64,000 bases of DNA from a virus, in IMG/VR virus record IMGVR_UViG_3300017989_005288; one strand, given 5' to 3'. A program made the translations under genes and the position numbers. Under the pieces are notes generated by a model that did not search any database, was not told the origin of the DNA, and saw nothing but the letters and a program-made list of their open reading frames with translations. Positions 14,065 through 28,448 of the stretch are shown here, in pieces. How positions within the stretch are numbered: the first letter of the stretch is position 1; each line of letters begins with the position of its first letter.

Positions 14065-15483
14065 TCATCCCAAAATTGCCTTTTCCCAATCATGAACCAC
14101 TTGCTTCACATCAAACTGACTCTCAACGGTTTGCAACGCAGACTTCACAATCTGGTCGCAAATATTCGGATCATTAAGACATGCCGTAATTGCTTGATAC
14201 CACTCATCTTGTGAGTTTGCAAGAAATCCATTTACACCATTGATAATATGTTCCTTGTATGGACTAACGTTGCTTGCTACTGTTGGAAAGCCACAAGCCG
14301 TGTACTCAAGCCATTTTATGTTGCTTTTAGCACTGTTGAAAGGAGTATCACCAAGTGGAGCTAATGCACATTCTGCCCTTAGTTGTTTCGTCGTTTGAAC
14401 ATATGTCTCAACATTCTTAAACTCCATGAACTCTACACGACCACTCCATGATCCAGCTTCTTTCCTCTCCACAAATCTACGCACTACAGTTGGCAAAAAT
14501 CCCAAAATGACCATACGCAAATTTGGACGCTCCTGCATGATTTTATCAACAGCTTTGGCACACTCTAACCAGTCCGCATCATGAGTGGCGCTACCCATCC
14601 ACAAAATACGTTGGTGTTCATCAGGACTCCCAAGAAATTGCCCCTGGTAACCATCATACACATCAATTGCATTGGGAATCACAATAGTGTAATCAGGACA
14701 ACCCAAACGCTCTTTCAAAATTTCCGTTGTCGTGGTTACTGCATCAACAATCCGCATAATACCACGTGCTGCTTCATATTGATCTCGCTTTACCATTCGA
14801 GCTGCCGGATTATCTGCTGGGATATGGAAAATGTCATCATCAATGTCGTAAACAATTCTTTTGCCTTGCCTTTTCAGTCGCTCAATCGTATAGTACTCAG
14901 ACCATGAATACAAACGCTGTACTACGATCACATCGTATTCCAACAGGTAATCGTAGACGACCTGTATTTCAGCCATATCGATGTAAAACTCATCGAGATT
15001 CATATACCGAGCTGGGATAACCATTCTCCAATAACCACAACCACTTTGATCTTTGATGAAAATCAGTTTTTTCTTATCCTCAACTTTTCCATCTACAATC
15101 CTTTTGATCAGCAATACTGCTTCACGATGTATATGGAGAGCCACTCTTTGGGTGCGTATTGATGGAAGCAAGTTCTTTGCTTTTATGTGCTGCTCATAAA
15201 TCTGGTCTGCAACAGTTTTTGCAATGGCAAAATCTTCCTTGTGCAAAACCTCTTCTTCATTATCCCAAAAAAGTCGATACAAATCTGGCTTGAATTTGTG
15301 CTGTTCAAACACTTCAGCACCAGTTAGCAATTTGACCACTGCGTAAGGGAGTAACTCCTTTTTGAACTCTGGCGGCATCGGAGCAATACTGGAATGAATT
15401 CGATCCTTACGCCGTTTTTTCCTTTTTTCTCGCCGCTTGCGTTCTTTTTCTACACGATTTGAACTCATACTTTCCTCCTTCAA
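14065..15483 (-). CDS. GT-B glycosyltransferase (GT4-like) with N-terminal extension
   Basis: YDIDDD, WMGSATH and KSNIKWLEY..CGFPTVAS motifs. Confidence 0.85.
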   Translation of the reverse strand: MKEESMSSNRVEKERKRREKRKKRRKDRIHSSIAPMPPEFKKELLPYAVVKLLTGAEVFEQHKFKPDLYRLFWDNEEEVLHKEDFAIAKTVADQIYEQHIKAKNLLPSIRTQRVALHIHREAVLLIKRIVDGKVEDKKKLIFIKDQSGCGYWRMVIPARYMNLDEFYIDMAEIQVVYDYLLEYDVIVVQRLYSWSEYYTIERLKRQGKRIVYDIDDDIFHIPADNPAARMVKRDQYEAARGIMRIVDAVTTTTEILKERLGCPDYTIVIPNAIDVYDGYQGQFLGSPDEHQRILWMGSATHDADWLECAKAVDKIMQERPNLRMVILGFLPTVVRRFVERKEAGSWSGRVEFMEFKNVETYVQTTKQLRAECALAPLGDTPFNSAKSNIKWLEYTACGFPTVASNVSPYKEHIINGVNGFLANSQDEWYQAITACLNDPNICDQIVKSALQTVESQFDVKQVVHDWEKAILG

Positions 15484-16388
15484 GAAGGTTTTATACTTTG
15501 CCTCTTCACTTTTTCAATCTTTCCCAAAATCATCTCAGCAGTAATGCTTTTTGAACACACGTATTGTCGTGGGCAGCGTACTCCTGCAAAATCACCACTT
15601 GGTGTCATTCTTTTATGCTTTTCAGCACAGAACGGAGTATCGCATAAATCCAATTTTCCAACTACTGGCTCAAAAGGAACACCGTTACGAAAAGGCATTC
15701 TAAATTGCGGATGAACAAAACTATACATACACACAATTGGAGTCGTTGTTGCAGCAGCAATATGCATCACCCCTGTATCCGTACCAAGGAAATAATCTGC
15801 CTTTTGAATCAACCAATTCAACTTGTGAATACTCCATTCAGCATCAACCAAATTTACTGTTAGATGATGATTCTGTGGATAGTATTCCTTATGCGGAATT
15901 CGTCTCCCTACCAAAACAATCGTGTAAGCTTTGGAGAGCTCTTCTATTGCACGTTCAAGCTCAGTACCGTTCAGAGGAACCCATGTAACACCAAAATGCA
16001 CAACGATAACAGGAGACGAATCACTTATGTTCCTACTCCACCAATCATCCACTGCCACACGATCTGACTCCGAAGGAAACAACTCAAGATTCAACGATTC
16101 AAAACTGCAATCTCCAACAATTTTTTCCGCATAGACTGCAACAGGATGTCTGCCAAAATCTTTCTCATACACACCATTAAGATTGACAACGTGTTCACCC
16201 GCTCTATGCAAGACAGGAGTCGCACAATCAACATAAGGGCTGTTTTTGAATACGTCAGGAAAAATAGTTTTGACACCAATAAATTCATCCGGCCTTCGTC
16301 GTCGCAATTCGCGAAGTGCTGGGGTCATCATCAACATATCACCCAATGCACCCTTTCTATCAACAATCATTATGCTCTCCAAGACCAA
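15480..16388 (-). CDS. GT9-family (heptosyltransferase-like) glycosyltransferase
   Basis: GALGDMLM.TP.LR; GTDTGVMHIAAA. Confidence 0.85.
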   Translation of the reverse strand: MVLESIMIVDRKGALGDMLMMTPALRELRRRRPDEFIGVKTIFPDVFKNSPYVDCATPVLHRAGEHVVNLNGVYEKDFGRHPVAVYAEKIVGDCSFESLNLELFPSESDRVAVDDWWSRNISDSSPVIVVHFGVTWVPLNGTELERAIEELSKAYTIVLVGRRIPHKEYYPQNHHLTVNLVDAEWSIHKLNWLIQKADYFLGTDTGVMHIAAATTTPIVCMYSFVHPQFRMPFRNGVPFEPVVGKLDLCDTPFCAEKHKRMTPSGDFAGVRCPRQYVCSKSITAEMILGKIEKVKRQSIKPS

Positions 16389-26788: not shown

Positions 26789-27274
26789 CTACCCTTTCTT
26801 TTGTGCTGCAACAAAAAAACTGTAATCCTCGTGCTTTGCTATGGTCTCGACCACTTCAAGACTATCAGGCAACAGAGGCAAAAACTCTTCCAATATCCAC
26901 ATATGTCTATGCTCTACATTTGGCGTTGTATACAACACTCTATCAGGTAAATAGATCACAACAAAACCACCAGGAATTACTACTCGAACCATCTCCTCAA
27001 TCATGCATTGAGGGTCTTCAAGATGCTCTAAAAAATGACTGGAATAAACATAATCAAAGCTGTTAGAATTGAACAAAATCAAATCAAATACTTTTCGTTT
27101 GATGTTTACTACCGACAAATCCCTCCACTCTTTTACACCCTTATGAATAATGTCCATCCCAGCATCTATGCCAAGTGCTTCTTGACAAATTTTTTCATCC
27201 CCACATCCCAAGTCTATACCACACCCCTTGCAGTATTTTATAGCGATTGACCTAATTTTAGACGTTTCGTTCAC
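26789..27274 (-). CDS. class I SAM-dependent methyltransferase
   Basis: IDLGCG, YSSHFLEH, RVVIPGG; probable GTG start at 27274. Confidence 0.85.
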   Translation of the reverse strand: MNETSKIRSIAIKYCKGCGIDLGCGDEKICQEALGIDAGMDIIHKGVKEWRDLSVVNIKRKVFDLILFNSNSFDYVYSSHFLEHLEDPQCMIEEMVRVVIPGGFVVIYLPDRVLYTTPNVEHRHMWILEEFLPLLPDSLEVVETIAKHEDYSFFVAAQKKG

Positions 27275-28448
27275 GTAGTTTCTCTTTCCACTTTCGTTGG
27301 AGATAGAGCTTATTTTTTCGCTCACAACCATCTGTAAGCAGCTTCATTTCCTTACCAGACGATTTGCTGGTTTGCGAACCAATATGCTTTACATTAGCAT
27401 GCACTTCTTTGACCTTAAAACCATGATAGATCAAATTGGTAGACAGGTCTGAATCCTCGCAATACGCAAATTCTACTTCAGTATCAAACAACCCAAACCT
27501 CTTATAAATACGTCGAGGAATGACAAAGCACCAACCCTCAATATATGGACGTCTGGTTGGCCTACGAGTAAAGCTAAAATCCTTAGCAAGGTAAGCTATT
27601 GATGGACCAACCTGAGCCAGCTTCTTATCTGCTTTCAATTCATTCAACATATAAGCTGCCCAATCTTGCTTGACTATCGTATCATCATTCAATATACACA
27701 AAAATTCACCACGAGAAATTGCTGCACCCATGTTACACGGTAACACATAGCCAGCAAAATATGGAATACGAATCAAAAAATGGTTAGGATACAAAGACAG
27801 CAATTTAGCTGTCTGTAAAGCAAACCCAATATCAGGTGAATTTACCACGATAATTAGTTCATAATCCTCGGTATGAGCGCGAATACTATCTATACAGTTC
27901 TTCAGATGATCTAAACGCTTTGCCGTGGGAATAACAATGCTTAACTCCGGTTTTTCCTTGTTGGCTACTTGAGCACCAATTGTAGCAGCTTGAATATCTT
28001 GTTGAGGTACTGCAACGTGGTCGTCCTCCTCTTTCCCATAATGAAGTATGCAACACAACTCACCACGTTGAATTCTGCCATTCTGTCGCAACCACATATC
28101 TTTATGCAAAGTTGTCCCAAACTTAGCAGTCACTGAACTTCCATGTACGCCATCAGTAGAGTACAATTTGATTTCATAAGTACGACCTGGCACAACTTTT
28201 TGGTCAACAAGAATCAAATAGAACTGATTATCAGAAAGCTCAGATGCTTTGAAAGTAACAGATTTGAGAGATGTGGAATGCTCGTAAATCTCAAGCACCA
28301 ACGTACTGTTATTGCGTCTACAATACGTTGCAAACTCGATACTGACCGCTCTTAAACAGTTTCCAGCAGCAACAAAAGGCTGCTGGATTATTTTTCCTTT
28401 AATCAACTCGCCTGTCAATTGTGACGAGTCACCAAACCGTTCAATCAT
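27258..28448 (-). CDS. GT2-family glycosyltransferase with N-terminal beta-rich domain
   Basis: LSIVIPT, ILNDD, YCEDSD. Confidence 0.85.
   Translation of the reverse strand: MIERFGDSSQLTGELIKGKIIQQPFVAAGNCLRAVSIEFATYCRRNNSTLVLEIYEHSTSLKSVTFKASELSDNQFYLILVDQKVVPGRTYEIKLYSTDGVHGSSVTAKFGTTLHKDMWLRQNGRIQRGELCCILHYGKEEDDHVAVPQQDIQAATIGAQVANKEKPELSIVIPTAKRLDHLKNCIDSIRAHTEDYELIIVVNSPDIGFALQTAKLLSLYPNHFLIRIPYFAGYVLPCNMGAAISRGEFLCILNDDTIVKQDWAAYMLNELKADKKLAQVGPSIAYLAKDFSFTRRPTRRPYIEGWCFVIPRRIYKRFGLFDTEVEFAYCEDSDLSTNLIYHGFKVKEVHANVKHIGSQTSKSSGKEMKLLTDGCERKNKLYLQRKWKEKLRERNV

Follow-up and report, generated by a model that had tools for sequence, protein, structure and literature searches.

An 18-gene glycosyltransferase and sugar-tailoring cluster inherited within a jumbo phage lineage

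Gene content of the cluster

The DNA analysed here, called the window throughout, is a 64-kb stretch of an uncultured virus (IMG/VR record IMGVR_UViG_3300017989_005288). On its minus strand, positions 14065-28448 hold a cluster of 18 translationally coupled open reading frames (ORFs). These code for ten glycosyltransferases of at least seven families and one sialyltransferase-fold enzyme, making eleven transferases, accompanied by methyltransferases, a deacetylase and two radical S-adenosylmethionine (SAM) enzymes. Our tentative reading is a glycan assembly line of a jumbo phage, acting on a phage protein that is probably part of the virion. Glycans made by viruses have been studied in depth in giant eukaryotic viruses, and a few mycobacteriophages have been shown to make them. 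Whether particles, DNA or host surface are glycosylated is, to our knowledge, not known for most phages.

The genes are given below in order of transcription. Pfam assignments are above the gathering score unless said otherwise, and orthologue percentages are identities to a collinear relative phage.

27258-28448, minus strand: first gene, GT2 glycosyltransferase (residues ~165-396; Pfam Glycos_transf_2, 46.4 bits; orthologue 57%)
26789-27331, minus strand: SAM methyltransferase (Pfam Methyltransf_11, 49.2 bits; orthologue 75%)
26548-26814, minus strand: 88-amino-acid (aa) basic repeat protein (from translation; no Pfam match)
25766-26551, minus strand: GT2 glycosyltransferase (Pfam Glycos_transf_2, 29 bits; orthologue 63%, relocated in the relative)
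24987-25769, minus strand: GT17-family glycosyltransferase (Pfam Glyco_transf_17, 82 bits)
24232-24990, minus strand: GT8/Nucleotid_trans-like GT-A protein (Atlas structure, TM-score 0.65-0.74; DTD motif; orthologue 46%)
23360-24298, minus strand: CgeB-like GT-B protein (Pfam Glyco_trans_1_2, 32 bits; orthologue 67%)
22816-23397, minus strand: class I methyltransferase, weakly CmcI/rhamnosyl O-methyltransferase-like (orthologue 71%)
22084-22815, minus strand: GT8/Nucleotid_trans-like GT-A protein (Atlas TM-score 0.77-0.84; DND motif; orthologue 81%)
20781-22070, minus strand: B12-domain radical SAM enzyme (Pfam B12-binding, 44.7 bits, and Radical_SAM, 74.3 bits)
20167-20784, minus strand: SAM methyltransferase (Pfam Methyltransf_11, 40.7 bits; orthologue 68%)
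19566-20183, minus strand: PIG-L/LmbE-family de-N-acetylase (Pfam PIG-L, 37.2 bits; orthologue 64%)
18706-19617, minus strand: GT4 glycosyltransferase (Pfam Glyco_trans_1_4, 48 bits; orthologue 78%)
18059-18709, minus strand: MptE/Maf-like protein, 216 aa (Pfam MptE-like, 24.5 bits, below the 34.6 cut-off; assigned by model fold)
17139-18062, minus strand: BtrN-like radical SAM enzyme (Pfam Radical_SAM, 87 bits, and SPASM, 38 bits)
16370-17149, minus strand: GT-A protein, GT2-like, with a Glyco_transf_7C (galactosyltransferase-type) C-terminal part (Pfam, 36.2 bits; orthologue 68%)
15480-16388, minus strand: GT9 glycosyltransferase of the heptosyltransferase family (Pfam Glyco_transf_9, 36.3 bits; orthologue 61%)
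14065-15483, minus strand: last gene, GT4 glycosyltransferase (Pfam Glycos_transf_1, 44.8 bits; orthologue 62%)

A sequence-only reading of the window had described about 18 coupled genes at these positions, with roughly ten glycosyltransferases among them. All of the ORFs were indeed found on the minus strand, overlapping or near-abutting. Junctions within the cluster comprise seven 4-nucleotide (nt) overlaps of the ATGA type, one zero gap and one 13-nt gap. The remainder are short overlaps that vary with start-codon choice, some of the longer ones being artefacts of calling the longest possible ORF. Its neighbours are 4 nt away on the upstream side (28453-28755) and 58 nt away on the downstream side (12816-14006), indicating a segment of a longer transcription array rather than an isolated operon. 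Promoter and terminator scans from 11 to 30.5 kb returned sites not above those in shuffled sequence, and no operon boundaries could therefore be set.

The family assignments of that reading were also largely reproduced. Its two GT4, GT9, GT7-like, GT17, two GT2 and CgeB-like genes all exceed the Pfam gathering score. The N-terminal ~165 aa of the first GT2 protein have no Pfam match. The two GT-A proteins lack any Pfam or PDB sequence match. Their assignment holds because the Atlas models match GT8 clusters and DxD motifs are present: both superpose on GT8/Nucleotid_trans clusters, mostly from tailed phages, with TM-scores of 0.65-0.84. The protein at 22084-22815 matches viral and GT8 clusters and belongs to a mostly viral family; that at 24232-24990 is 252 aa long when counted from the ATG overlapping the GT17 stop codon. 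Three methyltransferases had been named, and they correspond to two Methyltransf_11 proteins and the product of 22816-23397, which scores under the gathering threshold for both Methyltransf_24 (23.2 bits) and RMNT_CmcI (20.3 bits). The PIG-L protein clears its cut-off of 28.2 bits with intact motifs, a metal-binding HPDD at residue 16 and HIDH (HxxH) at residue 119. Both radical SAM enzymes, one SPASM-type and one B12-type as predicted, show the Pfam domains and a CX3CX2C motif. NCBIfam gave an equivalog-level assignment for none of the cluster proteins.

No convincing transmembrane segment was seen in any cluster protein. Pfam scans, which covered nearly all window ORFs of at least 100 aa, recovered no RmlC or RmlD, initiating transferase, flippase, polymerase or exporter family, in line with the sequence-only reading.

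The window itself is a single-strand gene array of uniform GC content (~0.41) and strongly negative GC skew. PHROG matches include a DnaE-type polymerase, a split, two-subunit topoisomerase II and an NAD ligase, and exonucleases, a RuvC-like protein and a tubulin are also encoded. The polymerase gene is interrupted by an intein and endonuclease, and its best matches are uncultured huge phages at ~34%. The window's genes are present on a 96-kb ENA contig, whose upstream continuation codes for RecA, uracil-DNA glycosylase (UDG), helicases, primase and DnaB. Phage identity rests on the PHROG replication matches, the tubulin gene, a CheckV-rated relative in IMG/VR and the 338-kb contig of that relative. 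Capsid, portal and tail families were not recognised in the window or in ~47 kb further upstream, nor was a terminase in the window.

Conservation in a related phage

The cluster was compared with the relative over one whole IMG/VR fragment of 61.9 kb (CheckV, 18% complete), which is collinear with the window over ~60 kb. The same phage occurs on 14 contigs, the largest being the 338-kb contig. All 18 cluster genes have orthologues in the fragment, with identities of 46-81% (mean 68.5%). In comparison, 21 of the 60 other window ORFs have no counterpart and the remaining 39 average 55.8% (Mann-Whitney p = 1e-4). The cluster thus matches core replication genes, for which identities are 68.5% (polymerase), 65% and 76% (topoisomerase subunits), 59% (ligase) and 67% (tubulin). 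Codon usage in the cluster correlates with that of the rest of the window at r = 0.94, against a baseline of 0.92 between the two halves of the rest. These orthologue identities and the matching codon usage show that the cluster is old, under strong purifying selection, vertically inherited and owned by the phage. Conservation on a par with the replication machinery is also an argument for its importance in each infection.

Differences between the two phages, a gained methyltransferase and a moved gene pair, are typical of glycan loci. An extra FkbM-family methyltransferase gene lies between the GT8-like and B12 radical SAM genes of the relative (contig L026, 5896-6627) and has no counterpart in the window; methylation of the glycan therefore probably differs between the two phages. 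The relative's 98-aa orthologue of the repeat protein (L026, 12318-12614) and its GT2 gene are placed between the GT7-like and GT9 genes.

Megablast of the 14.4-kb cluster against GenBank phages gave no match. By tblastn against the same phages, the GT8-like protein (22084-22815) returned nothing, the B12 radical SAM enzyme only Streptomyces phage SF3 (21%) and a partial match in Pseudomonas phage Y13, and the MptE-like protein only huge phage LR756500 (24%). The GT17 protein matched at 25-32%, while the other three of the four cluster proteins tested in this way gave nothing above 25%. Lone GT17 homologues were found at 17 other IMG/VR loci, as well as in huge phage LR756502 and Synechococcus jumbo phages. 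No further cluster gene flanks the LR756500 and LR756502 matches.

The sialyltransferase-fold protein and its radical SAM neighbour

The 216-aa product of 18059-18709, labelled Maf/MptE-like in the sequence-only reading, falls under the PF01973 cut-off, but the label is carried by a confident model of a sialyltransferase-type fold; relatives on contigs L029 and L037 score higher. An AlphaFold2 model built with 40 homologues reached pLDDT 92. Its top 17 Foldseek matches in the PDB are Cst-II, Cst-I, Maf (5mu5) and a P. multocida sialyltransferase (E = 5e-6 to 5e-4, TMq 0.50-0.60). Archaeal pterin pyrophosphokinase (HPPK), the namesake of the Pfam family, fits the model less well (TMq 0.41). Maf flagellin glycosyltransferases and the GT42 enzymes Cst-II and Cst-I share this core fold. 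The window protein differs from Maf in comprising the catalytic core only, with no flanking domains, and in a sequence identity of 12-16%. From the model, it is a candidate transferase of a cytidine monophosphate (CMP)-activated ulosonic or nonulosonic acid.

At E <= 1e-3 the wider family counts 1264 representatives, of which many are domains within 1000-2700-aa proteins, and its Atlas clusters are 81-93% viral. We surveyed 147 ORFs around distant homologues at 15 other IMG/VR loci. The commonest Pfam families were epimerases/dehydratases, cytidylyltransferases (6), DegT aminotransferases (3) and NeuB (2), which places these relatives beside genes for CMP-sugar and nonulosonic-acid synthesis. 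By PHROG matching, a major head protein is encoded at 4 of the loci, and several families of tail fibre were also found. On the strength of these neighbourhoods, the family in phages looks like a transferase of CMP-activated acidic sugars, often beside virion genes. Pfam scans of the window found no CMP-sugar synthetase, cytidylyltransferase or NeuB-type synthase, which leaves the host (CMP-Kdo if Gram-negative) or another part of the genome as the expected source of the donor.

The gene directly after the MptE-like gene codes for a radical SAM enzyme whose nearest solved relative, by both sequence (E = 5e-13) and fold (E = 5e-11), is BtrN. MoaA, SuiB, anSME, BlsE, viperins and DesII follow as matches. 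Its CX3CX2C motif is CNLNCSYC, and no cysteines other than 36, 40, 43, 235, 253, 297 and 300 are invariant across 7 homologues with identities as low as 40%. With only four invariant C-terminal cysteines beyond the radical SAM triad, the enzyme is expected to hold one auxiliary cluster. BtrN itself has one, and so shares the arrangement of a radical SAM cluster and a four-cysteine auxiliary cluster.

The same gene order is seen in the relative and on two further metagenome contigs. One of these pairs a 75% identical radical SAM enzyme with a 53% identical MptE-like protein, and the other a 65% identical enzyme with a divergent protein of the Pfam MptE-like family. On other contigs the BtrN-like homologue adjoins a GT29-like gene (one) or a GT8 gene (one). 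Homologues of 37-75% identity thus stand beside a transferase at L037 3383-4919, L038 1134-2912, L023 1399-3153 and L042 6800-8472. Sequence divergence is much faster in the transferase partner than in the radical SAM enzyme, and BLASTP found no meaningful similarity between the window MptE-like protein and the GT29-like neighbour on L023. A scan of a genome collection returned one 63% homologue of the BtrN-like enzyme, on a 9.9-kb contig binned to a Bacteroidota metagenome-assembled genome, where it lies beside a GT29-like sialyltransferase gene and no other cluster gene is shared.

We infer from this adjacency that the BtrN-like enzyme edits the sugar, or the CMP-activated donor, of the neighbouring transferase. 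The sialyltransferase-fold enzyme and the adjacent radical SAM enzyme may form an undescribed two-enzyme module that edits and transfers a CMP-activated acidic sugar. Literature searches on phage nonulosonic-acid glycosylation and on Maf with radical SAM enzymes gave nothing relevant, and the pairing of Maf or Cst proteins with a radical SAM enzyme of active type, as in the window, is not described in the literature searched. As a recurring pair, the two enzymes present a defined and testable enzymology problem.

The second radical SAM enzyme, with a B12 domain, carries CPFDCKFC as its CX3CX2C motif and has the diol-dehydratase AprD4 as its best PDB match (6fd2, E = 1e-19). It scores 83.8 bits against the AprD4 model NF033070, which has a cut-off of 500. 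BchE, ApyD and HpnJ models outscore the AprD4 model and are likewise far under their NCBIfam cut-offs. The enzyme cannot be labelled a methyltransferase, being far under every NCBIfam cut-off and closest in the PDB to AprD4. It is probably a sugar C-methylase, deoxygenase or rearranging enzyme. BtrN (the butirosin 2-deoxy-scyllo-inosamine dehydrogenase) and AprD4 (the apramycin C3' diol-dehydratase) are the best solved relatives of the two window enzymes and act on aminosugar-type substrates. Their substrates and reactions are not transferable, since identity over the fold alignments is below 20% and no NCBIfam equivalog cut-off is approached.

Other tailoring and transferase genes

The GT4 gene at 18706-19617 lies directly upstream of the PIG-L gene. 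Transfer of N-acetylglucosamine (GlcNAc) by a GT4 enzyme followed by de-N-acetylation is the logic of the mycothiol, bacillithiol, glycosylphosphatidylinositol and paromamine pathways. By analogy, the two window proteins may form such a transfer-then-deacetylate pair. The last GT4 protein (14065-15483) has BshA (5d00) as its best PDB match. It carries a lysine/arginine-rich N-terminal tail (residues 1-30) in both phages, kept in character and not in sequence, which could serve nucleic-acid binding, membrane binding or targeting. The GT9 protein gave weak PDB matches to WaaF and TibC alike.

The 88-aa basic protein comprises two copies of a ~30-aa motif with the core G-F/Y-L-Y-F-x-D-K-E-G-D-x-S-R. 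Its adjacency to the GT2 gene is kept even where the pair is relocated in the relative, which suggests that the two form a functional pair.

Relation to bacterial polysaccharide loci

A recent, intact host lipopolysaccharide (LPS) or exopolysaccharide locus would be the simplest alternative to a phage-owned pathway, and was rejected. A locus of Wzx/Wzy or ABC type would encode an initiating phosphoglycosyl transferase, a flippase or ABC transporter, and a polymerase or chain-length regulator, but Pfam scans of the window recovered none of these, and the cluster's GC content and codon usage match those of the rest of the window. Bacterial synteny is limited to one gene. This is the B12 radical SAM gene, which has hundreds of homologues. 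The bacterial homologues examined are 44-50% identical and belong to loci for surface polysaccharide or LPS core, where their neighbours include Wzx, Wza, Wzz, or LpxD/LpxI and GT9 genes. The nearest of these loci (L020, L022 and L069) share only this gene with the cluster, which argues against a recent host origin. One of them (L020, 1337-9880), with Wzi, Wza, Wzz and Wzx, adjoins flagellin and FliS genes.

Outside the lineage, the B12 radical SAM homologue of highest identity (53%) is found with GT8-like (30%) and PIG-L (29%) genes at L068 254-3955. This suggests a small recurring sub-module, perhaps a reduced and mobile form of one portion of the cluster. The contig, 9.3 kb long, ends in an rve-type integrase or transposase gene.

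Proposed pathway and acceptor

We propose that the cluster encodes a vertically inherited glycan assembly and tailoring line, soluble and operating in the cytoplasm of the infected cell. The ten glycosyltransferases and the sialyltransferase-fold enzyme would add sugars singly from nucleotide sugars, most of them supplied by the host with a contribution from the phage's own RmlA and RmlB. The chain would be built directly on the acceptor, without lipid carrier or export. An N-acetylhexosamine would be attached by the GT4 enzyme and its acetyl group then removed by PIG-L, and the three SAM methyltransferases would methylate the chain. The BtrN-like enzyme would oxidise or rearrange a sugar or its CMP-activated donor, and the B12-domain enzyme would C-methylate or deoxygenate a sugar. 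The acceptor would most likely be a phage protein, probably of the virion, so that the product would be a glycan coat. Each chemistry is predicted from its protein family, and the order of steps and the acceptor are likewise predicted. The sequence-only reading had arrived at a phage-owned pathway to a complex, methylated and de-N-acetylated glycan, with virion, host surface and DNA all considered as targets. This is supported, ownership by the relative, by codon usage and by the single gene shared with the nearest bacterial loci, and the product by homology.

Direct, sugar-by-sugar glycosylation of a cytoplasmic acceptor is favoured because all of the parts are soluble and no gene for a lipid carrier or export is present. 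A protein acceptor is further suggested by the Cst-II/Maf fold of the MptE-like protein, Maf being a protein O-glycosyltransferase, and the head- and tail-gene neighbourhoods of distant homologues support one in the virion. That the cluster is as conserved as core genes is consistent with a function required at each infection. There is precedent in giant viruses (PBCV-1, mimiviruses), which glycosylate virion proteins with their own soluble glycosyltransferases. Mycobacteriophages, as summarised in PMC12619734 and PMC11256854 (for Freeman et al. 2023), likewise use soluble virus-encoded glycosyltransferases, sometimes with methyltransferases, to glycosylate virion proteins in the cytoplasm without the host lipid-linked route; PMC12619734 summarises glycans on capsid and tail tube. 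A glycan coat on the virion could affect host range, recognition by immune or defence systems, and stability.

Several points weigh against this proposal. The cluster lies among replication and repair genes and not beside a structural module, whereas mycobacteriophage cassettes are commonly, although not always, found by structural genes; no structural gene or acceptor tail was seen near the cluster. No acceptor was identified, a search for Ser/Thr-rich tracts in window proteins and upstream ORFs giving nothing convincing. Eleven transferases, in a cluster of 18 genes, far exceed the two to four genes with which mycobacteriophages, the known phage case, glycosylate their virions. The window offers no CMP-sugar synthetase to supply the sialyltransferase-fold enzyme. 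Envelope polysaccharides are indicated by the GT9 family and by the bacterial B12 radical SAM homologues, and the polybasic tail of the last GT4 protein would also suit a nucleic-acid acceptor. Finally, the chemistry is drawn wholly from distant homology. Some of the remaining probability falls to other protein or intracellular targets.

Remodelling of the host envelope is an unlikely alternative. Host lipid-linked intermediates (lipid A-core or undecaprenyl-linked) would be extended or decorated at the inner membrane face and exported by host flippases, changing the cell surface and, for example, blocking superinfection. The GT9 heptosyltransferase family and the lipid A/core or Wzx, Wza and Wzz surroundings of the 44-50% identical B12 radical SAM homologues would suit this role, as would a predicted lipoprotein gene beside RmlA. 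However, the host would have to supply every membrane step: the scans detected neither an initiating phosphoglycosyl transferase nor a flippase, polymerase, ligase or exporter, and membrane segments are absent from the cluster. Conservation above that of most phage genes is also more than an accessory exclusion function would predict.

The closest described precedent for such remodelling is in jumbo cyanophages, whose glycosyltransferase clusters for modification of LPS or capsular polysaccharide are read in this way by Iyer et al. 2021 (PMC7824862), although that reading is itself a proposal only. The P-SSM2 cluster has 15 genes, and at least eight glycosyltransferase families occur across such clusters (PMC7824862). 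As in the window, these are large multi-family blocks in jumbo phages without export machinery, with gene content differing between related phages and a proposed function; Synechococcus jumbo phages also carry homologues of the window GT17 gene. P-SSM2-type clusters, in contrast, centre on epimerases/dehydratases (one to four paralogues), kinases and nucleotidyltransferases, none of which is in the window block (RmlA and RmlB lie outside it). The two radical SAM enzymes, the PIG-L deacetylase and the sialyltransferase-fold enzyme of the window are additions to that pattern. Of the four window proteins compared with GenBank phages by tblastn, only GT17 has a cyanophage match, the B12 radical SAM, GT8-like (22084-22815) and MptE-like proteins having none. 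Multi-family glycosyltransferase blocks in jumbo phages (PMC7824862) and glycosylation of virions and DNA by phage enzymes are already known. The present cluster is a new combination, with no internal sugar-nucleotide genes and with eleven transferases joined to PIG-L and two radical SAM enzymes. Counting three or four methyltransferases, it is among the largest and chemically richest seen in a phage.

Hypermodification of phage DNA is improbable. It would place an oligosaccharide on a modified base of the genome and so block restriction and CRISPR nucleases. The cluster does share its strand with surrounding genes for polymerase, ligase, topoisomerase, RecA, UDG and nucleases, and one GT4 protein has the conserved polybasic tail. 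In the work of Pyle et al. (bioRxiv 10.1101/2023.12.21.572611), phage enzymes akin to the glycosyltransferases of LPS and teichoic acid, encoded near replication genes as in the window, are shown to put mono- to trisaccharides, including heptose, on 5-hydroxymethylcytosine (5hmC). Such pathways usually cluster with hydroxymethylase or TET genes, however, adjoining a 5mYOX/TET or ThyS-like enzyme, often together with a C5 methyltransferase, and reach at most trisaccharides (Pyle et al.). Neither enzyme was found in ~111 kb here: no ThyS-like hydroxymethylase, TET/5mYOX dioxygenase or C5 methyltransferase is in the window or on record in ~47 kb more, and PF00303 (thymidylate synthase) has no match in the relative's 61.9-kb fragment. 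Eleven transferases with methylation, deacetylation and radical chemistry are also far beyond any known DNA glycan. A long methylated, radical-SAM-edited oligosaccharide on phage DNA, made without the known entry enzymes for 5hmC or 5-hydroxymethyluracil and initiated by the polybasic-tailed GT4 protein as a DNA binder, has an equally slim chance. The two-enzyme module proposed above for the sialyltransferase-fold and BtrN-like proteins is more likely than this idea. A glycan on DNA would, if real, be a new class of anti-restriction chemistry.

A soluble small molecule, such as an aminoglycoside-like pseudo-oligosaccharide or a glycolipid, is highly improbable: BtrN and AprD4 as best PDB matches and a GT4-then-PIG-L logic recall paromamine/lividamine, mycothiol and bacillithiol steps, as does BshA as the best match of the other GT4 protein, but Pfam scans of the window found no 2-deoxy-scyllo-inosose synthase or aminotransferase, the score with the AprD4 family model (84 bits) is far from its cut-off of 500, and ten further transferases are hard to fit.

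Flanking genes

Two sugar-nucleotide genes lie elsewhere in the window.

10232-10990, minus strand: RmlA, glucose-1-phosphate thymidylyltransferase (Pfam NTP_transferase, 198 bits)
38929-40917, minus strand: RmlB, dTDP-glucose 4,6-dehydratase (Pfam GDP_Man_Dehyd, 202 bits in two stretches)

The sequence-only reading had placed both outside the cluster, and that position is confirmed, RmlA being 3 kb and RmlB 10 kb away. They are not a conserved part of the system: neither has a match in the syntenic 61.9-kb fragment of the relative, and we therefore regard them as accessory. A bacterial RmlA on contig L022, from the same sample series, shares 61.5% identity with the RmlA of the window. The RmlB gene is interrupted by a LAGLIDADG intein (Pfam Intein_splicing and LAGLIDADG_3). 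It belongs to a block at 36528-41557, with three membrane-anchored ORFs, that has no counterpart in the otherwise collinear relative. Both RmlA and this block look like lineage-specific additions.

The ORF beside RmlA (9888-10235, 115 aa) has a lipoprotein-type signal peptide, with a hydrophobic stretch ending in LLTGC, and is 55% identical in the relative. On the contig that continues the window, ~37-47 kb past its right end (L071, 1-10000), lie very large ORFs of at least 2270, 842 and 663 aa. They have no Pfam match on record and may code for virion or RNA-polymerase-like proteins of a jumbo phage.

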